From Squalus acanthias (Eukaryota): a stretch of 64,000 bases of DNA. Where the stretch lies: contig CM059431.1 in the NCBI GenBank assembly GCA_030390025.1, positions 142,664,001 to 142,728,000 of the forward strand. The letters are read 5' to 3'. Below the pieces are notes generated by a model. It worked only from the letters and a program-made list of their open reading frames with translations. It ran no database searches and was not told the DNA's origin. Shown piece after piece: positions 508 through 54,211 of the stretch. Every line of letters starts with the position of its first letter. Positions within the stretch are counted from its first letter, which is position 1. The position numbers and the translations under genes were made by a program.

Positions 508-577
508 CGGGGACACCGACGGCTGCGAGAATCGGGTAGTAAATCTCTTTGATCAGCAGAATAGCTGGTCGCCCCAT
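508..577 (-). CDS. Exon 1 of a GPR139-like GPCR gene; the rest of the gene would lie beyond the left window edge
   Basis: Reverse complement reads ATG GGG CGA CCA GCT ATT..., i.e. MGRPAILLIKEIYYPILAAVGVP+G, followed by a GTGAGC donor. It has the same 70-nt length and phase-1 junction as exon 1 at 38456-38525, with a near-identical peptide. An AT-rich TATA-like ATAAATATAG lies about 80 bp upstream. Confidence 0.85.
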
Positions 578-1240
578 TTTCTGTGAGAATGGATGAATTC
601 TGTCGTAGCTGAAAGACTCTGACTGGCGCACGGCTGAGGCAATGGAAGGGAACCTATATTTATCCTCACATCAATCCTCCAGGGAATCAATCAGGCTACA
701 TCATTATAGCATTAGTTACAGTCATTTAACAAATAGACTCAGGTTAGTGTTTTGTTTGTATCAGATACATCGACTTCAGGCAAATAGTTGAAATGGTTAT
801 CGGACAGTTTAAAAACAGATAATTGAACCATTATTTACAAATGTAGAGTAGAATCTCCCAGTACTGATGCTGAGCCTATTCCTACAGGACGGGTGAAGGC
901 AGCTCCCCCTGCAGTAATCGCCCTGACACGGGCCTCACTCCCAGTGCCCAACTCCTCGCGAACAGGCGGTCAGCCTAATCCTGTCAGCAATCGGGCAGCG
1001 TCATAGAGCTTAACCATTTCCTTATATTTCTTTCCAATAAAAAGTATTCCTTGATGTATTTTTTGCAGTGGTAATCTGCAGCGATTTTATTAATACAGTC
1101 AACAGGTTTACCAGCTGGAATAAGCCTTTTTAATGAGGGTGTCCAGTCCTCCACTTCTGGGTAACCTGATTGAGAATCACTGAAAATGACATCAGAAACT
1201 ACACTGAACCTTTTAATGTTACTTTGGTCCACACGGTGGT

Positions 1241-1883
1241 GACCGATTTGTGGCGATCTGCTGCGGGAAGTTCAAGGCACAGTATTCCACCGAGCACTGC
1301 GACCGCCGTTGTTCTATCTGTCTCTGTCTGGACCTATTTAAAGAGGGGCCCCATTTAGTTTTCACATGAACCTGAGTGACCAATGAACAATGTGCAGTGG
1401 GTTTGCCGGATATCTGCGGACTTTCTTACATTACTCACATGGGCAGCGTACAACTTGGCCCGTATTACCTCAGTCCCATAGCTTCCCTTCATTCTGACGG
1501 CACTATTTAATTATTTGACAGTCAGACGTATTTTAGTGGTCTGTGAACCCCGCAGTGAGAATCAGACTGATTCGGAGATTGAGAACCGAAGGAAATCCAT
1601 CATCATACTCTTCACTATATCCGGCAGTTTTATACGAACATATACTCTTGTGGATCACAGCGGACGTGAGATTTTAACTACCCGAATGATAACCACCATG
1701 TATTCCCAGGGCGATTACACCAGTCCTGTATCGATCGCCACTCAAGCCGGATTTAAGCTGTTGTATTTGAGTTCCTGCAAAATCACCTGTATTTAGGCAG
1801 CGAACCAGAGGAAATTCAGCGAAAAGCTGCAGAATGTAGTGAAATCTGCCTGGACACTGATTCTGAGATTGATTAAAGAATGA
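1241..1883 (+). pseudogene. GPR139-like GPCR pseudogene (5'-truncated exon 2, TM3 to C-terminus)
   Basis: Encodes DRFVAICCGKFK..., TVRRILV...SENQTDSEIENRRKSIIILFTISGSFI and LLYLSSCKITCI*. These are colinear with the intact gene at 39276-40174 but carry frameshifts, deletions and stops. Confidence 0.9.
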
Positions 1884-2049
1884 AAAGGAATGAAGTCAAA
1901 CTAAAGCTTCCTTTTTTAATCTGAGTTCAATTTCAGCCCGTGCTCCAGCGGAGAGGGGCTTTCTTTCGGGTTGTGAGAGAATGGATTGCTCTTGTGAAAC
2001 CTCACAGGTATCAGAAAACATTTTAATAGAGTCTAAATGCGGGAGAGGA

Positions 2050-2770
2050 GCAAAGGGGTCTATGGGAACAGATTCACAAATCATTGAAAGTACCACGTCA
2101 AGTTAACAATCGCATAAAAATGTAAACCAAGCACTGGAACTCATTTTAAGATAACAGGATTCAAAAGCAGAGAAGTTGTGTTGAACTAATACGGAACCTT
2201 GGTCAGACCACACTGGGATTGCTTTGAACAATTCTGGTCTCCATATTACGAAACGGGGATCGAGGCACTTGAGAAGGTGCAAAAAGATTTTACAAGGATG
2301 ATACCGTAACTGAGAATGTGCAACTATCAGGAATGACTGAACAGGCTGGGATTCTTTCCTCTGGAAAAGAGAAGGCTGAGGGCTGACCTAATGGATGTCT
2401 TTCAATTATGAATGGGTCTGATCGGGTAGACGTAGAGAAGATGTTTCCTCTTGTAGAGGAGTTCAACAAAAGAGGTTTAAAATATTGGATAGTCACTAAT
2501 AAATCCAATAGGAAATTCAGGAAAAGCTTTTTTACCCAGAGATATTAGAATGTGGAACTTGCTACCACATGGAGTCCTCGAGCCGAATAGAATAGATGCA
2601 TTTAAGGGGAAACTAGAAAAGTCCTTAGGGGAGAAAGGAATAGAAGGATGTGCTGAAAGGGTTGGATGAAGTCGGGTGGGAGTAGGCTTTTCTGGAGCAT
2701 AAAATCGGCATAGATACGTTGAACGGACTGTCCTGTCCTGTGCTTTAATTTCTATGTATTTCTATGTAAT
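2050..2770 (+). mobile_element. CR1 LINE 3' fragment, degenerate
   Basis: RT C-terminal motifs (LVRPH.., QFWSP, LRADL, FFTQR..MWNLLP) followed by a CR1-type 3' tail (ttctatgta repeats). Confidence 0.8.
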
Positions 2771-3639
2771 TTCTTCTGTTTTGTAGGAGCCGTTCGACAT
2801 CTGCCTTCCTAGCGTTTTCTCGCTTCCTTCGTCGAGTGATCATAATTTTTTCTGGTAAATCAGCATCTTTTAACCTGAACATTCAAAGAAAACAGTCATG
2901 ATTGAGCTTAAGCTGTGCAGTGGAACATGTGAGCATCAGCGTCATCTGTCTCACACCGCAGGTCCTGGAATAAGACATGTCAGATTCATTGATGAATACA
3001 ACTTTCATTAGTGCAGAAAATATCAGGGGCCTTTCATCGTAAGTATTTGTCACTGTTCTGGATGTTTAGTGAGAATGATGCAGACTCCGGTCTCCCCAAC
3101 AAATCCCATTGTCTCCTGGACCAATAGAACGGGGCCTGTCTCCTGATCAGTGTCTAATGATGGAGAGAATAGAGAATTAACCCGCCAATGTGACGTTAGT
3201 CATCTCTGTTTACAGATACTTACTTAAAATGAAAATTTATCATTGGAAATTGAAGTTTGCACGTGATTGGCTCTGCCGCTAGCGGCTGAAGGAATCCTGA
3301 TTGATATTCCGGCCTGAGTCAGTATTTCCAAATAAAATTGGTCAAATATGTAAAATAAGAATACATTAAAGTAAAATTAATCGTGACGACATTTGAGGCA
3401 ACAGATTTGCAAAAAGATACTATCAAAATTCCTATATCAGATTGATGTTAAGTAGTCGGAGTTTACCTGAACCTTTATATGTCACATATAAAGGATATTT
3501 GTGGAGTTTTGTTTGATCTCCTGGACAGACATTGTTACAAATCATTCAGAACATGTCACCAGTTTGAATCAGTTGCTATTTGTTCACAGTTGTTCTACCC
3601 TGACATTCTGGTATGAATAACAAGGGGTGGGAACAAGGT

Positions 3640-13394: not shown

Positions 13395-14190
13395 AAGGGT
13401 TGAATGGCCTCTCCCTGTTCCTGTGCTCAGTCCCGCGGTCTGAATATCCTACTCATGCTGCTATTTTGTTGGCTCTGAATATTCTCCTCCCATTCCTATG
13501 TAACAGGCTCGATGAGCCGCCAGTTCTACCCCGGTAAATATGTAACAGGCTCGAGGGGTTGAATGGTGTACTCCTGTTCCTGTGCAACAGGATCAAGGGG
13601 CTGACTGGCCTACTTTTCGAATGTGAGCGACCAAACGGTGCAAAATAGCCTATCCCTGTTTCTATGTAGCTGGCTCGAGGGGCTGAATGGCCTTCTCCCA
13701 TTCCTATGTAACAGATTCTACGGTCCGCTCACCCTGCCACTGTAAGTATGAAACTGGCTTGAGGAGTTGAATTGCCGACTCTGTTATTTTGGAACAGGCT
13801 CGATGTGTGGATAGCCGACTCCTGTTCCTGTGCAGCACGATCTGGAGGATTAATGATTTAATCGTATTCCTATACAACAGGCTCGAGGGGCTGAATGGTC
13901 TTTTTCAGTTCCGTTCTAACAGAAGCGAGGGGCTGAATGGCCTACTCCTGTTTTTATGTAGCTGGGTCGAGGGTCTGGAAAATCTACAGCTATTCCTATG
14001 TTACGGACTAGAGGGCTAAATGGCCTCCTCCTTTCCTATGTAACGGGCTCGATGGGCAGAATGGCCTCGTTATATTCCTATGCAACAGGTTTTTGGGGCT
14101 GAATGGTCAATTCTGTTCCTACACGTCAGGCTGAGGGAGGCGGGGCGGGGGCTGAATACCTTTCTCCTGTCCCTATGTCACAGGCCCGAG
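13395..14190 (+). repeat. Tandem array (~42 bp unit) derived from the CR1 3' terminus
   Basis: The unit GTAACAGGCTCGAGGGGCTGAATGGCCTACTCCTGTTCCTAT matches CR1 3' ends elsewhere in the window (e.g. 55572-55606). A short CR1 RT fragment precedes it at 13325-13395. Confidence 0.85.
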
Positions 14191-14214
14191 AGACTGCGAC
14201 AATAAGGCGGTGAC

Positions 14215-14998
14215 GTGTCTACTGGCCATGGGCTTCAACCTCATCGGAATTTCGGTTATGTCTTTCCACTTCCCTTCCTGTTCCACACTCCAGTTTGCAT
14301 TCTCTGCTTGAATGTCTCCACCCTGGAAAGTTCTGTGCGGTTCACCGTCTCCTTCACCATTGAACGCATTGCGGCGATGTGCTGCTCGGAGTTTACAACG
14401 TCATATTGCACAGAGAGGACTGCAGCCGCGGTCTAACAGGGATCACAGACCTGGTCTGGTTCAGTTACAGCATCTGATGCTTTGAACAGGAAGAAATAAT
14501 TGACAATGTGCAGCGGGGTTGGAGCACAAGTGTGGAATCCCTTGTATTACATTCGTGGACAGTATATTCCCGGTGAAATCTATGTTTTCCCCTTGATGTC
14601 ATTTGCTTTGATTTCACTGTTTAAGAATCTGGCCGTTAGACACACCTTGCGGTCCAATCGACTCCGCAGGGCACTCTTAGTCATAACGGCGAGAAGAAGA
14701 GTGATCCAGAGAGGGAGAAGCGAAACAGATCGATCAATTCGCTCTCCACTCTACCGGCAAATTTTACCTTCTGGTGGTTGAAAGCTTCTGTGAGCTTTCA
14801 TTGTCAGAATGACGGCCAGCGTTCATTACCAAGGCGATTTCACCAACCCAATATGTATACCGACTCGAACCAGGTTCATGTTCATGTATTTGAGTTCCTG
14901 TACGAACACCTGCATTTCTGGAGCCACTCTGACCAAATACAGAGAAGAGCTGAAGACTTCGCTGATATTCCTCAGACTGGTTTAAAGAAAAAAAATAA
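14215..14998 (+). pseudogene. GPR139-like GPCR pseudogene (exon 2)
   Basis: Encodes YVFPLPFLFHTPVC..SVRFTVSFTIERIAAMCCSEFTTSYCTERTAAAV*, FALISLFKNLAVRHTL and MYLSSCTNTCI. Homologous to the intact gene, with stops and frameshifts. Confidence 0.88.
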
Positions 14999-16479
14999 GT
15001 CGAACCAAAATTTTGCTGTCCAATTTCAGAGCCCACTGTCAGTTTTTGTTGCAGCTCCGAATATTTCGCTGTTCAAAAACACAGTAGGATGGTTCTTGTA
15101 AACATTACCAGGCGCACGAAAATATACCCTGTATATAGCATGCGAGTCATGTCGGCATTGCCTCTGGGTGCTTGTATTTCAGAGCGTCCGATATGTTCCT
15201 TTCTCGCTAAGGTTGTAATTGAATAATCACAAGTAAGATGTATTGGTGGAATAACATCTTTGAGAAACAGAAATAATTGAATTCTATGCATGCCAGCAAT
15301 TTAGATTTACCGAATAAATTCACAATTAAAGTTTCCGGTCGGCAGAACCAATGACGTATTTTGCCCTCGTGCCTCGGTAAGATTTCTGCAGATGCGGGTC
15401 TCACCTTTAGCCGCAACTCCCTACTGTTTCCGGTCCACGTGGAACAGGGCACGTGTCTCTTGCGAAATGTCCTAATGATGCAAAACACTGAGAACTCTGC
15501 TTTTAACTGTGACGTTTGCCTGTTTCGATAAGAACGAGAAATCACGACTGGTGATCCAAAGTTGAAAGCTAATCATCGAAATTAACATTAAGGTGCACAC
15601 CCCGTTTATCAGTCCATACAGTGTAATACTTCTTTCTGAATTAGACCAATATTGAAAGATTTATGTAAATTTAATTTATTGGTAATGCAAGTAATAACTG
15701 CGAAAAATAATTGTCAGATATTTGAGATAAAATTTATATTTTGCTGAATAGTCAGTCTTGTGAACCTCTGCATATTGTTACGAAGAATGATCAATTATAT
15801 TACTCAGATTCTCTGATCAGTATGGTGAGCTGCAAGGAGAAAATCCAGTTGGGAGTTTGATAACAATGCTGAATAGTTATACGATTTAACCACACATTGC
15901 ATTCCAAAGCTCGTTGATGACTCACTATAACTAGATTTACAACACACTGCCACCAGGACAAGTCAATATAAATAGGCACACTGTGTCAAATAATACTTTG
16001 AATAATATGGTAATAACATCGGCAAATGTAAAGGGAAGCTGCCTGCTCTATAGATGCAAACTTGTGTTGAATCCGTGTCTAATTTGATAGAGTTAACTGC
16101 GGCCAAGGCAAGCCTAGAAAACTACGTCTTATTATCATTTTTATTATTGCTCCAAATAGTAATTGTTAAAAAGCAACACCTTTGTTCGGTCACCAATTCT
16201 TAGTTAAGAGGCTATCGACGTTGCTGTAGCTGACCTGGGATTAGCTGTGCTGAAGGTGTTGGGGACAGAAGGTCATCAGCGCTGGATAAAACCTGATAAA
16301 CACAACAGCAATAGAAGTAATATTAGAAATCAATTCAACATCTTAGCACCACACAATAAATGTAAATTTGCAGCAAGTAAGGAAAAGAATCTATCTCACA
16401 GTTGTCAGTGTGAGAACTGTAACAATGGAAAAACATTGTGAAGCACCTCGAGGATAAAATAGTCCAACAGGAACCACGT

Positions 16480-16990
16480 GGTACAGGCGGATGTAGTCGA
16501 TACAGTGGAGCAGTGAGAGGTGGTCGTTGTTTGTAAGGCCGACCTGCTTTATAAAACAAAACAGATCTTCCACCTAAACAATCTGTGGCAGAACACTCAG
16601 GTTATATAAGTGACCACCTGTTACTGTTCATAAATAACATAGCTTCTTTAGTATCAGTGTTGTCGGATCAAAAACAAACGCCTCTCATTAAAGGTTATAT
16701 TTCTTCTGAAGGGATAGGGGAGGAGAGAATGGGAAAAGTGTCGCTATATTTGTAAAGGAAACGAACTATTGTGAAAGCGCCGACTTTAAAACATCAGTTA
16801 CAGACGAAACTATTTGGATTCACTTCGTTCAAAGTCACAAATTAATCCCTCACACCTGTTACAGTCCCCCAGGAGAAGGAGACCTTTGTGACGAGACACG
16901 TTGAACACAAATTAATAAATACAGTGGATTGGGACAGTGCGGAGGTGGACCAGATGGGACGTTGACTATTAAATGAAACAAGGTATTATT
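16480..16990 (+). mobile_element. Highly decayed LINE AP-endonuclease fragment
   Basis: Remnant motifs GY...DR..VAIFVK, ETIWI and YSPP appear in shifting frames. Confidence 0.4.
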
Positions 16991-17078
16991 GTGGATAAGG
17001 CAGCAGGCACTTGGGCTATGGTCTGGCCAACGGTGAATCCGGGTGGATAGTTAGGTTACCTGACAGATAGATCTCAAT

Positions 17079-17330
17079 ATGTCGACAGGTGCTCTTTGGA
17101 AAAAATATCGAGCGAAGTTCGAGAAGAAGAGTGATGACACACTATTAGTGGAGTGCCTAACGAAGTATCTGAGCGTACCTTTTGAGGATGCGGTCAAATT
17201 CATTGAAAGACAGGTTAAGGCTAAGAAATGGAAGCCAGATAAAGTAATAAGTTTGACTGCGTATGCAGTTTCGTACTGTTCGGAGCGAGATGATGATGTT
17301 TTCCTCACGCAGGAGGATAAAATGTTATAA
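17079..17330 (+). pseudogene. Short basic, helical-looking ORF of the ERV-like element (gag N-terminus or accessory protein; unresolved)
   Basis: ATG-initiated 83-aa ORF with coding-like composition. A diverged copy of its 3' part lies at 23242-23293. Confidence 0.4.
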
Positions 17331-20162
17331 CAACAGAGTTTTGTTAAAATTCTCCAAAGTCATGTTACCACATCTACCGCGATCATACAGCAACAAAGTG
17401 TTAATACAGTTCAGGCAGGATCCGCCATACAGAATCTTGAGGGAGGCAGGTGTCAGATAGTTACCCTAACAAAAGATCTAATTTGCAGGCTAATCAATCT
17501 GAAAACTCAGCAAAGAAAGGAAGAAAACAGTCATTTAGAAAGCCAGGGAAAGCTGCTGAGACGCCGATTAAAAAAAAAAAGTTTTACCGACATGGAAGTT
17601 ATTAATGTATGTGCCGAGACGAATAAAACACAAGATTTGCTGAGTGAAAGAAACCTTAAAAAAATGCTGCAGTTTAAGTTTGTTTGAAAGTGTGTGTTAA
17701 AGTGCGACAGTTTTCCTGACTATGAATATTTAAGGAGTTTTAGTATTCCTATTGTCTGAAAGTCTGTCTTTAATTCTCCAATCACTTCTCTGTTTTAAGA
17801 ATGTGCAGTTAAGATTGTACACCCAGAATTGAAAAAAGCACTGTGAACTACAATTTAATTTAAGCTGGTGTGGAAAAACTGAGAAAAACAAAAAGTTTCT
17901 TTAACAAAAGATTAAGTGCCAGTCTTAGATTTAACCTTGGATTCGCGGTTGCTATGGTGAAATTTCCAAAGCAGTTTGATTTGATTTGTTTAAATGTGAA
18001 AACAACTAATTTTTCTCCAGTTGTATTCAATGCTCTTACAGTCATTTGGAAAGGCATCTGAAGAAAGGGAAAATAGAAATATGACGTAATTTACTGTTTT
18101 CTGCAAGCATGTTCTATTGTGTTTTGATACTGTTCGTGTTTAGTTAATAAAAGATTGATCTTAATTAAATTGTAATTATAAAAGGTAACAAATCTTTTAA
18201 AGTGTGAAAACACAACTGCCTTTTTCGACTAGGAACGTTTTTTTAAATTTACGTGAAGTGATGCAATTGCGTGCACCTGACAATGCTGCACTCCACCTTC
18301 TTAAAAAACCATCAAAGGAGTTAACCCTTTCCACTGACAGCTGTTTAAGTTCACCAAGCAACAACTTTTGTATTGCTGAATGAAATTTAAAGATATTGGA
18401 CATTATTAAATTTAATTTTCTTAATTTTAAGTTAATATTTCCCCACATTGACGGAAGGAAAATTATGCCTTGATAAATTAACGCTTTGGGCTCTTAAGCA
18501 GAATAACAATGGATTCTCTCCTTTCTTTTGTTATATGAAAGTTACCTTGTAAACTAATTGCAGCACTTCTGCCTCTAATGTTAAAACACCGAGTAAACCA
18601 ACTAGCCTGGGAATCACTTGTTTCTGAAATTGGAATTGATAAGATAAATTGATAGAAATGTAATTGAACATTACAAAACCTGTCAGTTCAACAATACTGC
18701 TGTTTGGATTTTGGGATAATTTTGAAATGACAAAATAGTGTCTGGCACTAGATATTGGGTTACTTTTGGGAACATAAAAGATCCTCTAAAATAATGATAT
18801 ATAAAAAGTGATAATAACTTGGACCAAGTGAGAACGTTTGATCTATGTTTTCTATCTTAAATATTGTACTGGACAGTAAAGTTCCTCCCGGGCTCATGAA
18901 TGAGATATGAATGATAATAAAAGGGAGGTGATTGAGGGTGTGAGATTGAAACAGGAAAATTACACTACTGAATGGGAATTTTCCAAATTTTCTAGTGAAA
19001 GTCAGGAGAGTGCAGCTACAAGTAGTAAATTGATAGCTTTCTCTTGGAGACATTTGAGTCCCTGCCTATAATGAACCTTTTAAGAAAACTGAAGTTGATA
19101 GTGCGGCCATTACCCAAGACATCGGGACCATGCAGAGGAAGACGAGCAAAGATCTCCAGACGGTTATAATCTTTTGAAAAGATACCTGAAAGCCCAAGAA
19201 TGGTTGGTATCGCATGGCACGTTTGGCACAATCTTGAGTTACCGATATGAGTGTACAAATGTGATTTGTTACGTATGAAGCAATTACCATCCGGAAATGC
19301 GTGGTGAATTTGCACTGAAGAACAGGTCACAGACATGCTCAGTTACTTGAACACATCAAGACATGAAATGGTTAATGTGACTCAGGAGACAACTTTTAAA
19401 GCATTGACACAAACTCCATCGAGAAACTATCTAATTAATGAAACAATCAGAAAACAGTTAAAAACTGTGGGACCTGTTCGAGGAATTGAAATTGAAGTTG
19501 AAGTGGAAAGGTACATGGAATTTGGATTGGGATAATTGAGGCTAAGCAGAAATCATGATTAGCAAGAATTAACCACAAGATGGATACGAGTAAGAGAGAT
19601 CTGGGTAATATTTTAAGTCCATGATTTGTTGATTAAATGTAAAAATGTAATGTCGCTTGAAATGATAGTAAGACTGAATTATACCTTGTAACTGTTATAA
19701 TTGTATTTTGTCGATAACAGAGCGTGGGGAAAAAACAGTACAAATCCAGAATGAGGTGGTTTTGGTGGTGCCTCCAGTGTCACTGCTACCGCAACTACCA
19801 TGCTTTACGGGTCTACGAGGACCTGTCCCATCAACCAACACGTTTCACTCAATAGGAAAACCTATGCTCAAGTGAAACTGACAGTAAGTGAGACATTAAG
19901 TATGAGCTGCGCAATTCAGATACAACATTATCCTGTTGTCTGAGGGCTTCAGTGAGCTCGTGATGCAACTGAACTCCTCCCAAAAGCATTTTTATTGTTG
20001 GAGCAAGACAACTCGATAATAGATATCGAATTTGACAGCATAAGGGACAACTCACACTGGTGGGATATTGCGCTTAATTTACCAGCACTACCTTAGGTTC
20101 GTATTATTTCACACGCTCTGATAGTTCTCCAACTTGTAATGATGGTGTATTTGATATATTTA

Positions 20163-21600
20163 TGATGTGGAGATGCCGGCGTTGGACTGGGGTGGACAAA
20201 AATGAGAAGTCGCACAACAACAGGTTATAGTCCAACAGATTTATTTAAAATTACAAGCTTTCGGAGCTGTCGCCCCTTCTTCAGGTAGGGTAGCTGTGAG
20301 AGAATCTCCCAGAATTCACAATATAAACACAGAAAAAATGTATTCAAATCTTTCCCTACATCAAAGACACACTAAGAGCACAGCCAAGACAATGAGATGT
20401 GTCCCAGGGGGTCCAACGTGTCAAAACACCTGCTGGCTGCATATCCTCTCCATTTTGGTTTAAAAAAAAACCTGGAAAGACCGGCCATGATGTCAAGTCA
20501 CGTTCTGTATCGTGACATGAACCCGATATCGCGATTGAGGCCATCCTCATGAGTGCGGAACTTGGCTATCAGTTTCTGCTCTATGATTTGCGCTGTCGTG
20601 TATCCCGAAGGCCGCCTTGGAGAACGCTTACCCGCAGATCCGAGGCTGAATGCCCCTGACTGCTGAAGTGTTCCCCGACTGGGAGGCAACCCTCCTGTCT
20701 GGCGATTGTTGCGCGGTGTCCGTGCATACGTTGTCTCAGTGTCTGCATGGTCTCGCCGATGTACCATGCTCTGGGGCATCCTTTACTGCAACGTATCAGG
20801 TAGACAACGTTGGCCGAGTCACATGAGTATGTACCATGTACCTGGTGGGTAGTGTCCTCACGTGTGATGATGGTATCTGTGTCCATGATCTGGCATGTCT
20901 TGCAGAGGTTGCCGTGGCAGGGTTGTGTGGTGTCGTGGTTGCTGTTCTCCTGAAAGATGGGTAATCTGCTGCGAACGATGGTACTTTTGAGGTTAGGCGG
21001 CTGCTTGAAGGCGAGTAGTGGAGGCGTGGGGATGGCCTTAGCAAGGTGTTCGTCATCATCGATGACATGTTGAAGGCTGCGAAGAACATGGCGTAGTTAT
21101 TCCGCTCCGGTTGCCTCCCAGTCGGGGAACACTTCAGCAGTCAGGGGCATTCAGCCTCGGATCTGCGGGTAAGCGTTCTCCAAGGCGGCCTTCGGGATAC
21201 ACGACAGCGCAAAATCATAGAGCAGAAACTGATAGCCAAGTTCCGCACTCATGAGGATGGCCTCAATCGCGATATCGGGTTCATGTCACGATACAGAACG
21301 TGACTTGACATCATGGCCGGTCTTTCCAGGTTTTTTTTTAAACCCAAATGGAGAGGATATGCAGCCAGCAGGTGTTTCGACACGTTGGATCCCCTGGGAC
21401 ACATCTCATTGTCTTGGCTGTGCTCTTAGTGTGTCTTTGATGTAGGGAAAGATTTGAATACATTTTTTCTGTGTTTATATTGTGAATTCTGGGAGATTCT
21501 CTCACAGCTACCCTACCTGAAGAAGGGGCGACAGCTCCGAAAGCTTGTAATTTTAAATAAATCTGTTGGACTATAACCTGGTGTTGTGCGACTTCTCATT
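20163..21600 (-). mobile_element. Penelope-like element (GIY-YIG endonuclease) with an inverted 3' copy
   Basis: ORF 20581-20886 reads NVVYLIRCSKGCPRAWYIGET...LRQRMHGH (GIY-YIG). Inverted arms of ~495 bp lie at 20197-20691 and 21109-21604. A 13-bp TSD TTTGATATATTTA lies at 20150-20162 and 21601-21613. Confidence 0.93.
21514..21549 (+). ncRNA. Minimal hammerhead ribozyme motif in the Penelope terminus (mirror copy at 20252-20287, minus strand)
   Basis: TAC-CTGAAGA-A-GGGGC GACA GCTCC-GAAA-GCTT-GTA. This has the CUGANGA and GAAA cores, stem II, a palindromic stem III and a 3-bp stem I. Confidence 0.7.
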
Positions 21601-21707
21601 TTTGATATATTTAACCCGTGTAGTAAGACTTTGAACTATGTAAAATCAGAAGTTTGATTAAGATCTACACAGTTAAATACGAATGAAACAAGGTAGGGAA
21701 TCAAAAA

Positions 21708-22608
21708 TTGTTAGGACTAATAATAGAAATTCTGAGTCTAATGAATCGAACCAGACCCAAACCTTTGTTTAGAGTAGAAAATATAGGAGTGGCGAAAATA
21801 AATACCATTAATCAATTCCTCACAGCATCAGAATGGTTGGTCCAGTCAGAAGAACTGACATGGATTGAACCAAACCTACACGGATGTAGTACAAATGAGG
21901 ATGCACTCATTTGCCCATACAATTTATACGATCACTCAAAAGATACCTGTCGTTTTGATTAGAATAAGGCGGGTCTAAACTGTACCATGGAAGTGACAGG
22001 TCCATCAGATTTGAGAACCAGAACGGCCTATGTACGAGCGGGAAGATATTGTTTTACCACATTATAGACCTATTTTCATAACGGATTACATACATGTTCA
22101 ATTAAGCAGGGAACCTATTGCATTACCCTAAAAAAACACAGTCATAGGAGGAAAAACTGTCCTTGCAGTTTCTACACCTGATCAGCAGGTCTTACAAGTA
22201 GAAGATAAATTGAATATAAATTTAGAGGACTATGTCATTAAATTTGGATATGACGTCCCTGAACTACTTGAAGCCTTAACCAAATTAATGAACCAGGTGA
22301 ACGCCTCCCAACAACATTACATTACACTGGAGCAAGGGAACAAAGATGTAGCCAAGGACATTCCACATATAGTAGATTTGACACATTGGTGGGATATCGG
22401 GACGGACATAGATATTCCCCCTTGGATTAGAATAATTTCAAACGTACTGCTCATAACCCAATTTATAGTATTATTGTGCTTACTGCTCTACACCTGCTAC
22501 TTAAGGCACCTAATGTACAAGACAAGATCACAACTAGACATAATCACAGCCCAGAAACTCCTGGAACTGAGCAAACGTGGGAGAGCTAACCCATATAAAA
22601 TAATTTAA
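21708..22608 (+). pseudogene. env-like glycoprotein module B (Cys-rich domain, heptad region, TM, short tail), disrupted
   Basis: Reads WIEPNLHGCSTNEDALICPYNLYDHSKDTC...LNCTMEV...RTAYVRAGRYCFTT...TCSIKQGTYC, then the heptad LLEALTKLMNQVNASQQHYITLEQ, HWWDI and the TM IISNVLLITQFIVLLCLLLY. Two stops and one frameshift (~22135). Confidence 0.8.
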
Positions 22609-23619
22609 AATTGAGGGGTCGGTTTGAACGCCTCGCCCTCGAGGTGGAATAGAGCGTTCATGTATGATTTTACAAAGTTTTAAATGTAATGCTTTTCGTA
22701 AAAATACTATGATATATAATAATGTATGTTAGAAGCATAAAACATCTGTTACAATATGCATAACCTTCGTTAAAAAGACACAAGGCTGAGAAGTAAAGCA
22801 TCATGTTAAAATTAAGCGAACATTATGTTAACTGAGAGAAGAGTGCGAAAGTAGAAAAGATTTTCTGTTATGTTAAAAACAAGCAGCCAGTGAAGGACAA
22901 ACATTAATTCAGTTTCAAAGTAAGACAGAGAGTTTTCAACACCTAAAATCCCTTATCGCTGAAGTTTCAGCCCAAGCTAGATATTGGTCTATGTGAAAGG
23001 CAAAATATATCTGTCGTAATTCGTGGGAAGTTTATTTATGTAAAAGTTCTCATCTAAAAACTCATTCAGAAAAAGGAAGGGTATCATTAGCACCAAGAAT
23101 GGTGACATAAATCAGGCGCTGCAAGTCGCCAAATATTTTGTGAGGGAAAAGATGTAAAAAAGCACCAATTGAACACTGAAGGCAGCGCCAAACCAGAGGA
23201 AGTGAAAACTTCAGTCAACAGAAGACAGCAAGACTGAGATGAGTTTGATTGCATATACAGCTTCGTACTGTGTGGTGAAGATGGTGATGATGTCAAACAA
23301 AGGGTACGCCCCAGTGTCCGTAGTCACAGAACCGCTCCCAGAGAAGGAGTTACCAATGAATCAGTATGTTGTATAGATCTGGTCAATATGGTTCCAAGCA
23401 TAGCCAATATCACAAGGACTTCGCCGAGGCAGTAAGAAAACCTTGACATTTAAGAATTCGACACCCGTGGGAGTCCAGTAGGATCCCTGGACAATCTCAC
23501 AAGTAGAGAATTCGGGGCCAGTGGTGTCCTACCTGGATCAGCAAAGGTCTGACCCGGGGGCCAAAAAGAGGGGCTGAAGTGGCAACCCGGAGGGCCATTG
23601 GTTGACTTGAGGGGCTAAT

Positions 23620-24158
23620 AGGATAGTAACATTGCTCAATGTACTGATGTGGTGAGAACCTGTGATTATTCTATCACGTGTAAGTCGATACCTTTTAATG
23701 TATGCTGCAATAATGTAAGTATCCATGTTAGTAACATGCCATTGTAATCGCAAGGCATGATGGGAAGCTTGGCCATATGTAAGCTAAGATGTAAAAAAAC
23801 TGTAGGTGTAAGCAGTTTGGACGAAAATACGTTTTTGTCTATGAAACCAAGGCTAATGAGCAAAAGATAAGGGGGAACTGAAGGTCAGATAATGTGGTTA
23901 AAAGAATCACAGGAAAGCAGACGTAAGGGCCTTGAGACTGGGACAGTTGAGGTAACAAGAAACATCTGTCAAAGCCTACGTAACTGGTAATTAATGTTTG
24001 AGCAATTATCGGTAGTAGCTTGATTATGTATAAATAAACTTCCACGACCATTGTAAATTTGAGAGACTTCGGTGCGCTGAAGATTCTCCCCAGCATTTTT
24101 GTAATAAAGTGTTCCCGTATCGCAGCCTATCCGTGACTTCGAGTGGTTTCTTTCCACA
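23620..24158 (+). mobile_element. 3' LTR-like sequence (start uncertain; could extend to ~22650)
   Basis: TATAAA at 24029-24034, AATAAA at 24103-24108, and an end at ...TTTCCACA (24158) abutting the satellite. Confidence 0.65.
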
Positions 24159-24164
24159 AAATTA

Positions 24165-25901
24165 TACTAGGGTCTCCGCCATTAATGTTAGAGTAGGGCC
24201 AGCATCAGTTATGTTACTGTACGTTCAGCTTTCGTAATGTTAGAGTAGGGCCAGCATCAGTAATGTTATTGTACATTCAGCTTTCGCAATGTTAGAGGAA
24301 GGTCAGCAACAATAATGTTAGAGAAGAGTCACCAGCAGTAATGTTAGAGTAACGTGAGCCACCAGTGATGTTAGAGTAGGTTCACCACCAGTAAATTGAT
24401 CATAGGCACAACATCAGTAATGTTAGAGTAGGGTCACCATCAGTAATGCTAGACTAGGGTCATCACCAGTAATGTTTGACCAGGGTCACCAACATTAATG
24501 TTAGAGTAGTTTCAACACCAATGACGATAGAGTAGGGTCACCACCAGTTATGATAGAACAGGGTAAACATCAGTAATGTTAGATTAGATTCACCAACAAT
24601 AATTTTAGTATAGAGTTCAACACCAATAATGTGAGAGTAGGGCCACCACCAGTAATGTTAGATTAGAGTATCCACCAGTAATGATAGAGAAACCTCGCCA
24701 CCAGTAATGTTGGAGTAGGATCACCGCCAGTAAGGTTAGAGTAGGGTCACCACCAGTAATGTTCGACCAGTGTCACCAACTGTAATGTTAGATTATTTTC
24801 AACAAGAGTAACGATAGAGTAGGGTCACCACTAGTTATGTTAGAGCAGGGTAAACAACAGTAAGGTTAGAGCAGAGTCACCACCAATAATGTTCGAATAG
24901 TGACACCTTCAGTAATGTTAGAGTACAGTTACCAGCAGTAATGTTAGAGTAAAGTAAGCCACCAGTAATGTTAGAGTGGGGCATCACCAGTAATGTTAAA
25001 GAAGGATCACTACCATATATGTTACTGTAGGATCACCATCAGTAACGTTATCGTAGAGTCACCACCAGTAATGTTAAAGTAGGGTCACCACCAGTAATGT
25101 TAGAGTAGAGTCACCACCGGTAATGTTAGAGTAGGATCACCACCAATAATATTAGAGTAGGATCACCAAAATTATTTTAGAGCAGTGTCACCACCAGTAT
25201 TGTTAGAGCAGAGTCATCACCAGTAATATTAGAGTAGGGTCACCACCAGTAACGTTAGAGTAGGCTCACCACGGGTAAGGATAGAGTAGGTTTACCAAAA
25301 GTAATGTTGGAGTAGTGCGACCACCATTAATGTTAGAGTAGGAACACCATCAGTAATGTAAGAGTTGGGTCAACACCAATAATATTAGAGTGGGGTTAAC
25401 ACCATTAATGTTGGATAGTTTCACCACCAATAATGTTGAAGTAGGGTCACCAACAGCAATGACAGAGTAGGGTCACAATAAGTTATGTTAGAGTAGGTCA
25501 CCAACAGTAATGTTAAATCACGGTCACCACCCGTAATGTTGGAGAACGGTCACCGTGAGTAGTTTTAAATTAGTTTCAACATCAGAAACGGTAGAGCGAG
25601 GACGCCAACATTAATGTTATAGTAGGATCAACACCCTTAACGTTAGAGTTGGTACACCACCATTATTTTTAGAGTAGGATCAACACTAATAATGTAGAGG
25701 TATGATCACTGCAATTAATGTTAGCGTAGGGTCACCACCACTAATATTAGAGTAGGTTCACCAATAATAATATTAAAGTAGGTTCACCACCAGTAATGTT
25801 GGAGTAGATTCATCACGAGTAATGTTAGTGTAGGGTCACCGCCATTAATGTCAGAGTAGATTCACTACCAGTAATGATAGATTAGGTTCACCAGCAGTAA
25901 A
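24165..25901. repeat. 26-bp satellite, left block
   Basis: Tandem CACCACCAGTAATGTTAGAGTAGGGT, with diverged units. Confidence 0.97.
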
Positions 25902-28908: not shown

Positions 28909-31690
28909 ATGACAAGGCTGGATGGCATTTATTTTAATGCAAGGAGTCTTGCGAGTAAGGCAGATGAATTGAAGCTGTTGATGAACACATGGGTGTATGA
29001 TATTGTTGCTATCACAGAGACATGGTTGAGGGAGGGGCAGGACAGCCAGCTCAATATTCCGGGTATAGAATCTTCAGGCGAGACAAAGGGGGGCGTAAAA
29101 GAGGAGGGGTTGTTGCAATATTAATCAAGGAGTCAATTACTGCTGTAAGGAGGGATGATATCTTAGCAGGTTCCTCAAATGAGGCCATATGGGTCGAACT
29201 TAAAAACAAAAAGGGGCAAGCACTTTGCTGGGAGTGTACTATAGGCCCCCAAACAGTCAGGGGAGATAGAGGAACAGATATGTAGGCAGATCTCAGAAGT
29301 GTAGAAATATTAGGGTAATAATAGCAGGGGATTTCAACTTCCCCAATATTAACTGGGACAGTAAGTCTGTGAAAGGCTTAGCGGGTGCGGAATTGTTAAA
29401 ATGAATCCACGAGAGCTTTTTGAGCCAGCATGTAGAAAGTCCTACAAGAGAGCGGGCGGTACTGGACCTAATTCTAGGGAATGTAGCCGGGCAAGTGGTA
29501 GAAGTGAAAGTAGGAGAGCATTTTGGTGAGAGTGACCATAATTCGGTGAGATATAAGGTAGTCATGGAAAAGGACAAAGATGGACGGAAATAAAGATTAT
29601 AAATTGGGGAAGACCGATTTTAATATGATAAGCAGGATCTGGCCAAAGTGGACTGGAATTAGCTACTTGCAAGGAAATCCACATCAGAGTAGTGGGAGTC
29701 TTTCAGAAAGGAAATAGAGAGAGTACAATGCCAACATGTTCCCGTAAAGGTCAAGGGTGGGACCAACAAGCCCAGGGAACCCTGTATGTCAAGGGATATA
29801 CAAGAATGGTTTAGGAAAAAAACGGAGGCTTTTGGCAGATACAAAGGACTTAAAACAGTGGAAGCCCTAGAGGAGTACAGAAAGTGTAGGGGGGTACTTG
29901 AAATGAAATTAGGAGAGCGAAGAGGGGGCCTGAAAAAACACAGGCGGGCAAAAGAAAGGAAAATCCCAAGGTGTTTTATAAGTATATTAAGGGCAAGAGG
30001 ATAACCAGGGAAAGAGTAGGGCCCATTTGGGACCAAAGTGGCAATCTGTTTGTAGAGTCAGAAGATGTAGGTGAGGTTATAAATGAATATTTTGCATCTG
30101 TGTTCACTATGGAGAAGGACGATGTAGGCATAGAAATCAGACAGAGGGATTGTGATATACGTGAACAAATTAGTATTGAGAAGGAGGAGGTACTAGCGGT
30201 TTTAGCTGGCTTAAAAGTGGATAAACCCCCAGGCCCAGACGAGATGTATCCCAGGCTGCTGTGTGAGGCAAGGGAGGAGATTGCAGGGGCTCTGACACAA
30301 ATTTTCAAAACCTCTCTGACCACAGGGGAGAAGCCAGAGGACTGGAGAACAGCTAACGTAGTACCATTATTCAAGAAGGTTAGTACGGATAAACCAGGGA
30401 ATGACAGGCCAGTGTGCCTAACATCAGTGGTAATGGAATTATTGGAAAAAATTCTGAGGGACAGAATAAGTCTCCACTTGGAGAGGCAAGGATCAAACCA
30501 GGATAGTCAGCATGGCTTTTTCAGGGGGAGATCATGTCTGACCAATTGGATTGAATTTTTCGAGGAGGTGACTAGGTGTGTGGATGAGGGTAGTGCAGTT
30601 GATGTGGTCTACATGGACTTCAGTAAGGCTTTTGACAAAGTCCCGCATGGGAGACTGATCAAGAAGGTAAGAGCCCATGGGATCCAGGGCACCTTGTCAA
30701 ATTGGATCCAAAATTGGCTTAGTGGCAGGAGGCAGAGGGTGATGGTGGAAGGTTCTTTTTGTTACTGGAAGCCTGTGTCCAGTGGTGAACCGTAGGGATC
30801 GGTGCTGAGTCTTTTGCTGTTTGTAGTGTACATTAATGATTTAGATATGAATGTCGGAGGTATGATCAGTAAGTTCGCATGTGACACGAAAATTGGTGAA
30901 GTGGTAAATAGCGAGGAGAGAAGTCTCAGGCTACAGGACGATATAGATGGTTTGGTTAGTTGGGCAGAACATTGGCAAATGGTATTTAACCCTGAAAAGT
31001 GTGAGGTGATGCATTTTGGGATGACTAACAAGGCAAGGGAATAAACAATGAATGGTAGGACCATAGGAAGAACAGAGGATCAGAGGGACCTTGGTTTGCA
31101 TGTACATAGATCCCTGAAGACAGCAGGTCAATTAGGTAAGTTGGTTAAAAAGGCATATGGGATACTTGCCTTCATTAGCCGAGGCATAGAATATAAGAGC
31201 AGGGAGATTATGATGGAACTGTACAAAACGCTGGTTAGGCCACAGCTGGAATATTGTGTGCAGTTCTTGTTGCCACACTATAGGAAGGATGTGATTGCAT
31301 TGGAGAGGGTGCAGAGGAGATTCACCGAGATGTTACCTGGGCTGGAGCGCTTCAGCTATGAAGAGAGCCTGAGCAGGGTGGGGTTGTTCTCCTTAGAGCA
31401 GAGAAGGCTGAGGGGGGACCTAATTGAGGTGTTCAAAATTATAAGGGGCATATAGAGGGTAGTTAGAAAGGAACTTTTCCCCTTAGTAGAAGGGTCAATA
31501 ACCAGGGGCCATGCTTTCAAGGTAAGGGGCAGGAGGTTTAGAGGGGATTTCCGGAAAAAAAAACATTTTCACCCCGAGGGTGTTTGGAATCTGGAACTCA
31601 CTGCCTGAAACGGTGGTAGAGGCAGGAACCCTCAACATTCAAGAAGCATTTAGAGGAGCACTTGAAACGCCATAGCATACAGGGCTACGG
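28909..31690 (+). pseudogene. CR1 ORF2p endonuclease/reverse transcriptase, fragmented
   Basis: ORF pieces starting at 28909, 29022, 29786, 29971, 30802 and 31048 carry canonical APE and RT motifs. Confidence 0.92.
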
Positions 31691-31803
31691 ACCAAGTGCT
31701 GGAAAATGGGATTAGAATAGACAGGGCTTGATGGCCGGCCCGGACACAATGGGCCGAAGAGCCTCTTTCTGTGCTGTATAACGCTATGACTATGACTCTA
31801 TGA

Positions 31804-32284: not shown

Positions 32285-35200
32285 ACCAGTAAAATAGTCA
32301 TAGGCTCACCACAAGTAATGTTAGAATAGGGTCCCCATCAGTCATGCTAGAGTAGGGTCAGCATCAGTTAAGCTAGACTAGGTTCACGACCAGTAATTTT
32401 CGACCAGGTTCACCAACAGTCATGTTAGAGTAGTTTCAACACCAGTAACGATAGAGTAGGGTCACCACCAGTTACGTTAGAGCATGGTAAAAACCAGTAA
32501 TGTTAGAGTAGAGTCACCACCAATAATGTTCGAATAGTGTCACCATCAGTAATGATACATTAGAGTTACCAGCAGTAATGTTTGTGTAAAGTAAGCCACC
32601 AGTAATGTTAGAGTGGGGCATCACCAGTAATGTTAGAGTGGGGCATCACCAGTAATGTTACAGAAGGAGCACTACCATCTATGTTACTGTATGATCATCA
32701 TCAGTAAAGTTATCATACAGTCACAACCAGTAATGTTAGAGTAGGGTCACAGCTAGGAATGTTAGAGTTGGGTCACAGTCAGTTGTTTTAAAGTAGGGTC
32801 AGCAAGAGTAATGTTAAACCAGGGACACCACAAGTAATGTTAGATAGTTTCGCCACCAGTAACGTTAAAGTAGAGTCATTACCAGTAATGTTAGAGTACG
32901 ATCACCGCCAATAATATTAGAGTCGGGTCAACAACAGTATTGCTAGAGTAGGGACGCCACCAGTAATGATAGAGTTGTTTCACCACCAGTAACGTTAGAG
33001 TAGGGTCATCACCACAATTGTTAGAGTAGGGACAGCACCAGTAATTTTAGAGTAGGAACACCATCAGTAATGTTAGAGTAGGATCACCACCAGTAATGAT
33101 AGAGTAGTTTCATCCACAGGTAACGTTAGAGTAGGGTCACCACAAGAAATATTGGAGTTGAGTCACCACCAGTAATGTTAGAGTGCAGTCAGCAACAGCA
33201 ATGTTAGTGTGGGTCACCACCATTAATGTTGGAGTAGATTCACCACCAATAATGTTAGAGTAGGGTCGCCAACAGCAATGATAGAGAAGGGTCACAATCA
33301 GTTATGTCAGAGAGGGGTAACCAAAGGTAATTTTAAATCACGGTCACCACCAGCAATGTAGGAGAATGGTCACCATCAGTAGTGTTAAATTAGTTTCACG
33401 AGGAGAAACTTTCGAGTAAGGTCACCAACAGTAACGTTATAGTACGATCAACACCAGTAAGGTTGGAGTTGGGATATCACGATTAATTTTAGAGTAGGTT
33501 CACCACTTTTAATGTTAGACTAGTTTCTTGACATGTACACTGAAAGTACGATCAACTTCATTAATGTTAGCGTAGGGTCATCACCTGTAATGTTAGAGTA
33601 GGTCCACCACCAGTAATGTAAGAGTGGGGTCATCTCCAGTAATGTTAGACTAGGGTCATCATCAGTAATGTTACAGTCGAGACAGCACCAGTAATGTCAG
33701 AGTAGTTTCACAACCAGTAATGTTAGAGTAGGTTCACCACCAGTAATGTGAGAGTAGAGTCACCACCAGTAATGTGAGAGCAGAGTCACCACCAGTAATG
33801 TTCGATCAGGGTCAACAACAGTAATGCTAAAGTAGTTTCACCACCAGTAATGTTAGAGTAGGGTCTCCATCAGTAATGTTAGAGTAGGGTCAACACCAGT
33901 AATGTTAGAGTTGGGTCACCACCAGTAATGTTGGAGTAGGATCACCACCAGTAATGTTAGAGTAGGGTCACCACCAGTAATGTTGGAGTAGGATCACCGC
34001 CATTAACGTTAGAGAAGTGTCAGCACTAGTACATTTATCATAGGCTCACCACCAGTAATGTTAGAGTTGGATCACTGTCAGTAATGTTGGAGTAGGGTCA
34101 CCACCAGTAACAATAGAGTAGAATCACCACCATTAAAGTTATCATAGAGTTACCACTAGTAATGTTCGAGTAGGGTCACCACCAGTAATGGTGGGGTAGG
34201 TTAATCACCAGTAATGTTAGAGTAGAGTCACCACCAGTATTGTTAGAGCAGGGTTATCATTGTAATGTTATGGAAGGGTCACACCAGTAATGTTAGAGTA
34301 GGTTCACCACCAGTAATGTTTGAGTCGAATCACCAGCAGTAATGTTAGAGTAGGGTCACCACCAGTAACGTTGGAGTGGGATCACCATCAGTAATATTAG
34401 AGTAGAGCACGACAACATTTATGTTAGGGTATGGTCAATACCAATAATGTTAGCGTGGATTCACCATCAGCAATGTTAGTATAGGGTCAGCATCAGTAAT
34501 GTTAGTGTAGTTCCACCAACAGCAATGCTACAGTAAGTCACCATCAGTAATGTTAGTTTAAGTTCCCCACCATTGATTTTAGAGTATGGTCACAATCAGC
34601 TATGTTAGAGCAGTGTCACCATCAGTTGTGTTAGTGTAGTTTCACCACCTGTAACGTAAGAGTACTGTTACCACCAATAATGTTAGAGTACAGTCACCAC
34701 CAATAATGTTCGAATATGGTCACAAGCATTAATGTTAGAGTACTGTCACCATCAGTAATATAAGAGTTGGTTCACCGCCAGTAATGATAGAGTAAGGTCA
34801 ACACCATTAATGTTCGAGTATGGCCAGCACAATTAATGTTAGAGTAGGATCAACACCAGTCGTGTAAGTGTAGCGTCACCACAAGTAATTTTCGAGTAGG
34901 GCCACCATCATTAATAAAAAAAGTAGAGTCACCACCAATAAAGATAGAGTAGGGAAACCACAGATTTGATGTTAGAGTAGGGTCAGCTAACCTAATGTTA
35001 TAGTGATACACCATCAGCAAGGTTACATTAGGGTCTCCACCAGTAATGATAGAGCAGTGTCACAACAGTAATGTTAGAGTAGTGTCTCTACCAGTAATGT
35101 TAGAGTAGCGTCACCACAAGATAATGTTAGTGCAGCATTGCCATCATTAATGATAGACTAGAGTTACTAACAGTAATGTCAGAGTGAAAAAGCACTAGTA

Positions 35201-38045
35201 ATGTTAGCGTAGGAACAACATCATTAAATTTAGAGTAGAATCACCACCATTACTTTCAACTAGGCACGCCTCCAGTAATGTTATTGCAGGGTCACCACCA
35301 GTAATGTTAGAATAGGGTCACCACCATTAATGTTAGTGTAGTGTCACCACCAGTAATGTTAGATTATAGTCACCATCAGTAATGTTAGAGTAGGGGCAAC
35401 AGCAGTAATGATAGAGTAAGGAAACCACCAGCAATGTTAGAGTGGGTCACCACCAGTAATGATAGAGTAGGGTCACCACCAGTAATGATACAGTCGGGTC
35501 ACCACCAGTAATGTTAGATTATAGTCACCATCAGTAATGTTAGAGTAGTGTCACCACCAGAAATTTTAGAATAGCGTCACCACCAGTAATGATAGAGGAG
35601 GGTCACCGGCAGTAATGATAGAGATGTTAGAGATGAGTTACCACCAGTAATGTTAGAGCAGTTTCACCACCAGTAATGTTACAGTTGATACACCACCAGT
35701 AATGTGAGAGCAGGTTCAACACCAGTAATGTTAGAGTTGAGACACCAGCAGTAATGTTAGAGTAGGGTCACCACCAGTAATGTTAGAGCAGGTTCACCAC
35801 CAGTAATATTAGAGCAGGTTCAGCACCAGTAATGTTAGAGCAGGTTCACCACCAGTAATGTTAGAGCAGGTTCACCACCATTAATGTTAGAGTTGGTTCA
35901 CCACCAGTAATTTTAGAGCAGGTTCACCACCAATAATGTTAGAGCAGGTTCAACACCTGTAATGTTACAGTTGAGACTCCACCAGTAATGTGAGAGTGGA
36001 GTCACCATCATTTATGATAGATTAGAGTCACCACCAGTAATGTTACAGCAGGATCACCACTAATAATGTAGGAATACGATCACTACCAGCAATAGCAGCC
36101 TAGATTCATGACATGTACTGTGAATGTAGGATCAACTTCAGTAGTGTTGCACAACAAGTAATGATAGAGTAGTGTCACCAGCAGTAATGTTAGAGTAGGG
36201 TCATCACCAGTAATGTTAGAGTAGGGTCACTACCAGTAATGTTAGAGAAGGGTCACCAACAGTAATGTTAAAGTAGTGTCACCACCAGTAATGTTAGAGT
36301 AGGGTCAACACCAGTAATGTTAGAGTCGGGTCAACACCAGTAATGTTAGAGCAGGATCACCATCAGTAATGTAAGAGAAAGTTCACCACTATTAATGTTA
36401 GAGTTGATACACCACCAGTAATGTTAGATTTGGTTCACCACCAGTAATGTTAGTGTTGAGACACCACCATTAATGTTGGAGCAGCTTCACCACCAGTAAT
36501 GTTAGAGTAGGGTCACCACCAATAACGTTAGGGTAGTGTCACCACCATTAATGTTAGAGTAGATTCAAAATCAGTAATATTAGAGTAGAATCCCCACCAG
36601 TAATGTTAGTGTTGAGACACAACCAGTAATGTCCGAGCAGGTTCACCACCAGCAATGTTAGAGTAGGGTCACCACCAGTAATGTTAGGGTTGAGACACCA
36701 CAAGTAATGTTGGAGCAGCTTCACCAGCAGTAATGGTAGAGCAGGTTCACCACCAGTAATGTTAGAGTTGAGACACCACCAGTAATGCTAGAGTAGATTC
36801 CCCACCAGTAATGTTAGAGCAGGGTCACCACCAGTAATGTTAGAGCAGGTTCACCACCAGTAATGTTAGAGTTGAGACACCATCAGTAATGTTAGAGCAA
36901 GTTCACCACCAGTAATAATAGAGTAGGGTCACCACCAGTAATGTTAGAGCAGGTTCACCGCTAGTAATGTTAGAGGTCAGACACCACCAGTAATGTTAGA
37001 GTAGGTTCTCCATCAATAATGTTAGTGTAGGGTCAACACCAGTAATGCTAGAGTAGATCCCCACCAGTAATGTTAGAACAGGGTCACCATCAGCAATGTT
37101 AGAGCAGGGTCACCACCAGTAATGTTATAGTTGAGACACCACCAGTAATGTTCGAGCAAGTTCACCACCAGTAATGTTATAGTTGAGACACCACCAGTAA
37201 TGTTAGAGCAGGTTCACCACCAGTCATGTTAGAGTAGGGTCACCACGAGTAATGATAGAGTAGGGTCACCACCAGTAATGTTAGAGTAGTGTCACCTCCA
37301 GTAATGTTAGAGTAGGGTCACCACCAGTAATGTTAGGGTTGAGACACCACCAGTAATGTTAGTGTTGAGACACCACCAGTAATGTTAGAGTAGGGTCATC
37401 ACCAGTAATGTTAGAGCAGGTTCACCAATAGTAATGTTAGAGTAGTGTCACAGCCACTAATTTTAGAGTAGGCTCACCACCAGTAATGTTAGAGTAGAAT
37501 CACCATTATTAATGTTAGATTTGAGACACAACCAGTAATGTTAGATTTGGTTCACCAAAAGTAATGTTAGAGCAGGTTCACCATAAGTAATGTTACAGTT
37601 GAGACACCACCAGTAATGTAAGAGTAGAGTCACCACCAGTAATGTTAGAGCAGGTTCACCACCAGTAATGTTAGAGTAGAGTCACCACCAGTAATGTAAG
37701 AGTAGAGTCACCACCAGTAATGTAAGAGTAGAGTCACCACCAGTAATGTTAGAGCAGGTTCACCACCAGTAATGTTAGAGCAGGTTCACCATAAGTAATG
37801 TTATAGTTGAGACACCACCAGTAATGTTAGAGTAGGGTCACCACCAGTAATGTTAGAGTAGGGTCACCAGTAGTAATGTTTGATTAGTGTCACCAGCAGT
37901 AATGTTAGAGTAGTGTTACCACCAGTAATGTTAGAGGAGGATCACCACCAGTAATGTTAGAGTAGAGTCAACACCAGTAATGTTTGAGTAGGGTCTCCAC
38001 CAGTAATGTAAGATTAAAAGCATCGTCAGTCATGTTGGAGCCGAT
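32285..38045. repeat. 26-bp satellite, main block (~220 units)
   Basis: Same unit as the left block. The central 7 nt vary among GTAGGGT, GCAGGTT, GTTGAGA and GTAGAGT. Confidence 0.98.
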
Positions 38046-38333
38046 TCATCATCATTCATCATCACAGTACAAAACAAATCGTTATACAATGGATGAGTGA
38101 CGATTTCATCAAATTAACATGTGACTTCAAGAACCTAATGCAGAGTCCGGGAAGGATGTTGCCTTCAGTTTTCACATTAGATTCACAGAGCACATTCCCT
38201 CTGGGATTACTTTCCGTTCATTCATTTTAATGGACCGAGTTTCATGGTCTGATCTGTTCAATTTCCCCAGTGGCGGCCGGGGCACACTGAATGGGAAAAT
38301 CGCTCCTTGTTTGTTAAGTGACTGTAACCAGCG

Positions 38334-54137: not shown

Positions 54138-54211
54138 CGTTTCTGGGTGGGCATGAACCACCAACCGTTCGGTTAACAGCCGAACGCGGTAACGGATTGC
54201 GCCACAGGGAC
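54138..54211 (-). tRNA. tRNA-Asn(GTT), probably a pseudogene
   Basis: GTCCCTGTGGCGCAATCCGTTACCGCGTTCGGCTGTTAACCGAACGGTTGGTGGTTCATGCCCACCCAGAAACG matches vertebrate tRNA-Asn, with substitutions in the D-loop GG, B box and acceptor stem. A T-run lies downstream. Confidence 0.85.

Follow-up and report, generated by a model that had tools for sequence, protein, structure and literature searches.

A broken, multi-copy retroviral element of Squalus acanthias in which the C-terminal ends of two distantly related env genes lie back to back

The 64,000-nucleotide (nt) window analysed here, which corresponds to positions 142,664,001 to 142,728,000 (forward strand) of contig CM059431.1 in the Squalus acanthias assembly GCA_030390025.1, contains a broken retroviral element that belongs to a multi-copy family and in which the C-terminal ends of two distantly related env genes, termed module A and module B, are placed back to back. 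Both modules belong to a single family of envelope proteins (Env), both lack their N-terminal half, and the join between them recurs in diverged copies, while at this locus module A is broken by a Penelope-like element. The features of the element, which ends in what appears to be a long terminal repeat (LTR), are as follows, in window coordinates.

19767 to 20162, plus strand: module A, a decayed C-terminal piece of a predicted F-type env (about residues 550-705 of a 739-residue relative)
20150 to 20162, no strand: left copy of a 13-nt target-site duplication, an exact direct repeat
20163 to 21613, no strand: Penelope-like insertion of 1451 nt, with the right target copy at 21601-21613
21614 to 21634, plus strand: last six codons of A and its stop (21632-21634), with the A/B breakpoint at about 21634 (range 21634-21700)
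21636 to 22608, plus strand: module B, C-terminal part of an env of a second lineage, predicted to be F-type (starting at about residue 417 in the 739-residue relative)
22661 to 24158, plus strand: LTR-like 3′ end (TG...CA, a TATA-like word at 24029 and AATAAA at 24103)
17079 to 17684, plus strand: two open stretches with one stop between them (17328), at the expected place of a gag start

Module B consists of a Cys-rich ectodomain, a heptad region, a transmembrane (TM) segment (22432-22488) and a 39-residue tail. The original prediction regarded it as the downstream env, and its Env homology is borne out, but what is present is the C-terminal ∼44% of an env (columns 470-776 of an 805-column profile built from 26 relatives, with no window sequence included), carrying three stops (21684, 21960 and 22065) and a frame change near 22130. 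Column 470 is residue 417 of the relative P0007, and B likewise starts at about residue 417 in P0016, in both cases in mid-ectodomain and ∼145 residues beyond their R-x-K-R cleavage site, so B has no signal peptide, cleavage site, fusion peptide or first heptad region. A signal peptide, cleavage site or fusion peptide was found for neither the A nor the B copy in the window, and neither module would make a working fusogen. Two deletion variants occur within B among the copies described below, one from 21797 to 22410 (in all four runs compared) and one spanning 21725-22399.

Module A is more decayed. Its profile match covers columns 651-763, which a frameshift-tolerant alignment extends to about column 584, and relative to shark and frog Env proteins of ∼730 residues only the last ∼140-170 residues are covered; the module may begin near 19699. 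The peptides quoted in the original prediction are all there, and a stop (20094-20096) does occupy the aligned position of the conserved W, but A does not read through as one frame as had been supposed: its homologous middle (19906-19992) is set off by a frame change at either end (near 19907 and 19990) and is read in a different frame, ∼20 codons are gone relative to its relatives (vs. P0028), and reading it in a single frame gives three stops. The TM-coding stretch is at 20103-20159 and is followed by a cytoplasmic tail of 7 residues, compared with 39 in B and 16-40 in ten relatives. The N-terminal ∼530 residues of A are undetectable, and 19100-19750, tried as the N-terminal half of env A, failed, with no profile match and a frameshift-tolerant alignment that scored no better than the nulls (15.8; null mean 16.1; 32 of 60 nulls as high). 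One copy of a 151-nt, 70% repeat lies in the same region (18993-19142) and the other at 41150-41297, so part of the sequence upstream of A may be another insertion.

The insertion within A is flanked by the 13-nt exact repeat at 20150-20162 and 21601-21613, as the original prediction had it, and contains inverted arms (20197-20691 and 21109-21604; 496 nt, 99% alike) and a minus-strand piece of an open reading frame (ORF) at 20581-21096. A target-site duplication of this length together with an inverted terminal copy fits a Penelope-like element, as would a putative GIY-YIG-type endonuclease motif (Pfam gave no match at E 0.5), and on this anatomy and motif the element is probably Penelope-like. 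It is seen at this locus only, among the copies seen. Eight contigs from the sequencing run X11 part from the window at 21601, and their continuation agrees by eye with 20120-20149 at 28 of 30 letters; since they enter A's TM-coding sequence, the insertion-free join is confirmed.

Homology of B starts at 21633-21639, immediately at the stop of A and in a different frame, and its first 25 codons fit mid-ectodomain columns of the profile (0 of 500 shuffles as good). A sharp breakpoint between dissimilar elements is thus present, with an uncertainty of up to ∼70 nt.

That A and B are related, as originally proposed, is well supported. BLASTP aligns them with 18 of 51 residues identical (E 2e-10; tblastx sum E 6.5e-12), and the part preceding the TM segment has by itself a score of 64 (mean of the shuffles, 23), which 0 of 2000 shuffles reach; with the TM segment included, the count is again 0 of 2000. 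They are likewise too diverged for a recent duplication, with 102 of 179 nucleotides (57%) and 30 of 100 aligned protein columns identical. The particular alignment of TRTCPINQ in A with LHTCSIKQ in B fared less well, in that 134 of 2000 shuffles do as well as the direct match, which on its own lacks significance, but the alignment is recovered through relatives (P0028, 0 of 500 shuffles; P0024, 1 of 500). On shared columns B is 38-41% identical to P0011, P0015, P0027, and P0028, while A is at most 31% identical to any of the 17 relatives compared, and module A records a further Env lineage. A maximum-likelihood tree of 17 of 19 rows (P0008 and P0025 were left out for low coverage) leaves A and B unpaired.

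The relatives were found with phmmer, where the Cys-rich piece of B gave 12 matches among 1.84 billion proteins, of which ten were kept (among them seven shark proteins and one frog protein) and two were dropped as spurious, P0012 (short repeated stretches) and P0018 (a bacterial SdrD-repeat protein); a profile search added 18 of 6200 candidates. The longest, P0007 (739 residues) and P0016 (723 residues), have an R-x-K-R near residue 270, a motif also found in P0014, and a C-terminal TM segment. Because P0016 is annotated in the frog Pelodytes ibericus, the Env family extends beyond sharks. Searched against 1284 six-frame chunks of the window, the 26-sequence profile matches A and B only. No relative was found in viral-contig scans with P0002 and P0007 or among the 257 and 200 pattern matches of metagenome scans with B and A, respectively, and word-seeded searches with two B pieces among longer proteins gave no match.

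This Env family is predicted to have a fold like that of the paramyxovirus fusion protein F. The best Foldseek match of the P0007 model (pLDDT 47.6, low confidence) is human parainfluenza virus 3 F (E 2e-6, TM-score 0.21/0.34), and among the matches listed nearly all are paramyxo- or pneumovirus F proteins, together with one foamy virus Env. The P0020 model gives leading matches of the same kind, but more weakly, with its best E value (1.8e-3) to respiratory syncytial virus F and a VIA Z of at most 5.9, tied with foamy virus Env. By sequence, the Pfam F family (PF00523) was matched by none of 25 members, and a search of PDB sequences gave no match for P0003 and, with profiles, only weak and unrelated ones, mostly coiled-coil chains. 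The F-type assignment of A and B is therefore predicted, as it comes through models of relatives. Pfam gave nothing for the window pieces beyond one sub-threshold match. The Atlas linked the C-terminal piece of B to GP41/TLV_coat clusters (0.92, low recognition), which was read as a likeness in heptad region plus TM segment and rejected as a family assignment.

The original prediction had also asked whether the A-then-B order occurs elsewhere, and this was addressed with sequencing runs, where 11 of 14 listed runs contain part of 21620-24160; no RNA data set was among those listed, which is no evidence about expression. Four of these (X1, X5, X6, and X11, from four studies and three organisms) were compared over 21480-24200 at 80% likeness; record and contig counts hold among the records listed, and depth and variation cover this interval only. 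Each of the four runs covers all 30 bins, and each contains diverged copies, which differ by 7.5-17%. Two records span the join, X1 record 1 (21601-22066; 35 differences in 466, 7.5%) and X5 record 17 (21601-21917; 34 differences in 317, 10.7%). Both begin at the target duplication and have 34 letters on A's side followed by B, and since near-identical records (0-5 differences in 157-336) are present in the same runs, they are read as insertion-free paralogues. Diverged copies from two studies thus have the join as well, and it is not specific to this locus; the situation originally named as speaking against a dual-env element, A and B being neighbours here alone, does not hold. At 21644, just beyond the join, 11, 13, 4, and 7 contigs of the four runs differ from the window letter. 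At least six X11 contigs, from another species, diverge after 21634 into other sequence, which could be followed for 20-30 letters, so the end of A exists without this B as well; these contigs would behave as a non-recombinant parent should. Depth jumps at 22662 (X1 204 to 3059, X5 263 to 2043, X6 26 to 151, X11 112 to 2112), an increase of ∼6- to 19-fold in a quantity that is not copy number.

The rest of the element is less distinct. Its 3′ end is probably an LTR, with a 5′ border at either 22661 (the depth step) or 23648 (a 5-nt terminal inverted repeat); a second copy, or a 5′ LTR, is not present in the window. The ORF at 17079 may by its position be gag-like; it has no Pfam family, its best Atlas score (0.86) comes without a family, and its single 16-residue match in a 98-kb viral contig was taken as chance. 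Within it, 17247-17303 resembles 23239-23294 of the LTR-like end over 57 nt (77%; 0 of 60 shuffles reach the score), and this look-alike may be a fragment picked up by the element or all that is left of a 5′ LTR. Reverse transcriptase (RT), protease and zinc-knuckle motifs were found in none of the six frames of 15000-24200, and the few loose integrase-pattern matches, which fall within the insertion or env or on the minus strand, were dismissed as chance. A search of 14000-25000 against Rfam was negative.

Elsewhere in the window, a 26-nt satellite forms long arrays at 24160-25900 and ∼32300-38070 (the largest family has 195 overlapping 300-nt matches), the first of which adjoins the 3′ end of the element. 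Two repeat copies in opposite orientation (29295-31791 and 46968-49437; 86-91% alike) contain RT-like ORF pieces (e.g., 29902-30795), and we take them to be LINE-like (long interspersed nuclear element). ARAGORN calls a tRNA-Asn at 54137-54212 on the minus strand, which may be a tRNA-derived repeat.

How two env stumps came to be joined in this way is best explained, with slightly more weight for than against, by a non-autonomous chimera of two retroviruses with F-type env genes that were joined out of register and then amplified. In this scheme, two different viruses would have recombined when RT switched template between co-packaged RNAs, passing from just beyond the membrane anchor of A into the middle of the B env, whereby the A-type element would have gained the 3′ end and LTR of B. 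The resulting chimera, without pol and non-coding, would then have been copied in trans by a helper virus, and the founder would have spread, giving rise to further internal deletions. Template switching, co-packaging and the use of a helper are steps that established retrovirology would supply. A chimera of two related proviruses was one of the two options originally offered, and it fits, with the difference that the chimera is family-wide rather than local. Several observations weigh against this explanation. The 5′ half of the A-type element has no retroviral identification in Pfam or the Atlas, and neither parent is seen whole, the full-length relatives of B being 28-41% identical to it and hence not the parent. 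Sisterhood of A and B is not rejected (approximately unbiased, AU, test p 0.31, 100 columns). The segment 21615-21662 also fits a reading as cytoplasmic tail (1 of 500 shuffles, in one of three frames tried), so the breakpoint may sit up to ∼70 nt further on. No contig among those listed contains the ectodomain of A together with B, so that the link consists of two overlapping observations, and the two bridging records may come from a single paralogous locus. Integration sites, independent flanks and a 5′ LTR were not seen in the runs over the interval compared, and template switching is not distinguishable from a DNA-level deletion with these data.

Such a deletion is the basis of an alternative that we regard as unlikely, in which a B-type provirus inserted into an A-type provirus or next to it, the A anchor then became fused to mid-B through a deletion, and mobilisation of a read-through transcript gave rise to the family. 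The same anatomy would result, and internal deletions such as 21797-22410 and 21725-22399 are common in the family, but two events and a later remobilisation are required, A and B are not separated by any LTR remnant, and the window has no second LTR. It is distinctly unlikely that the 3′ end of env was instead partially duplicated long ago in one virus lineage and that the copies then drifted apart. While the AU test leaves A and B free to be sisters, 30% identity between two non-coding stumps would require change well beyond the 7.5-17% by which copies differ, and B is nearer to the Env of other elements than to A. Moreover, A keeps protein-level conservation at 57% DNA identity, from which it would follow that the two diverged under selection in separate viruses.

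The other option of the original prediction, two env paralogues in one virus, finds no support in this copy, which has no N-terminal halves and in which B begins in mid-ectodomain at A's stop, out of frame, after an A tail of seven residues. Recurrence of the join does not separate a chimera from a dual env, since an amplified recombinant also recurs. A dual-env parent could still be imagined, a shark retrovirus in which two whole F-type env genes, 30% identical to each other, stood in tandem and from which a deletion removed the tail of A and the N-terminal half of B, and the recurring A-then-B order in diverged copies, the frequency of deletions in the family and the six X11 contigs, whose sequence beyond 21634 could be the undeleted stretch, would all agree with it. 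We consider this very unlikely: two complete env genes are not present, A covering columns ∼584/651-763 and B columns 470-776 with nothing else in the window, and the undetectable N-terminal ∼530 residues of A require still more losses. We know of no precedent for keeping two class I fusogens. In the literature searched, which was mostly non-subscription and included PMC8672886, the available text likewise describes no retrovirus whose env is duplicated or present as two genes, although supplements to two preprints could list such elements (bioRxiv 2023.10.26.564294; bioRxiv 2021.11.23.469661). Least probable of all is that A and B came together by chance at a single old locus, from which segmental duplication rather than reverse transcription made the other copies. 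The long 26-nt satellite adjoining the element from ∼24160 and the lack of independent flanks seen would suit it, but the copies differ by 7.5-17% and the sharp depth jump at 22662, although depth is not copy number, is what a doubled or solo LTR would give.

The chimera of two F-type-env retroviruses has counterparts in known systems, as far as the available text of the sources describes them. recKoRV elements are recombinants of koala retrovirus (KoRV) and PhER, in which numerous defective copies resulted from recombination with an older, degraded element (PMC6112702). Together with the macaque HML2/MER11A recombinants (PMC10536682), they have in common with the A/B element a defective, multi-copy make-up drawn from two dissimilar retroelements, in which env is disrupted and the breakpoint is shared. 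By analogy, the A/B element probably works like these recombinants. It differs in that both partners contribute env, giving two env ends in tandem, and in that these are of predicted F type; moreover, for the A/B element the parents and any microhomology at the join are not identified. The closest Env class is that of lokiretroviruses (lokiorterviruses), in which Env resembles the fusion glycoproteins of Mononegavirales and has an R-x-K-R, a coiled coil and a TM segment (PMC7947760; PMC9040795). The relatives of A and B share these three features, and relatedness to F comes through those relatives only, whereas the signal peptide, RXKR and fusion peptide of lokiretrovirus Env are absent from the A/B copy in the window. 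The lokiretrovirus family is defined by RT phylogeny and a dual RNase H (PMC7947760), and the A/B element, having no detected pol, is likened to it by Env class alone. Next to the gag with capsid fold and the two LTRs of a lokiretrovirus, the A/B element has the 17079 ORF, which matches no family, and a single LTR-like end. The lokiretroviruses of PMC7947760 have one env per genome, and the main text of that paper names no cartilaginous fish (0 matches for shark, cartilaginous or Chondrichthyes). Endogenous retroviruses (ERVs) related to SnRV are known in cartilaginous fish (CmiERV lineage I; PMC4422223) and are, like the A/B element, shark ERVs.

To find a genuine two-envelope retrovirus would be surprising, because a virion is generally taken to depend on a single Env, and the data do not point to such a virus. 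Instead, if the two stumps do derive from separate viruses, the element would be the fossil of a recombination between two deeply diverged retroviruses with F-type env genes in sharks. Such viruses would have been expressed together, and a coding-dead chimera of them would have spread to several species. This would be modest news, in that the pattern known from recKoRV would then hold for cartilaginous fish and for a non-canonical envelope class as well.

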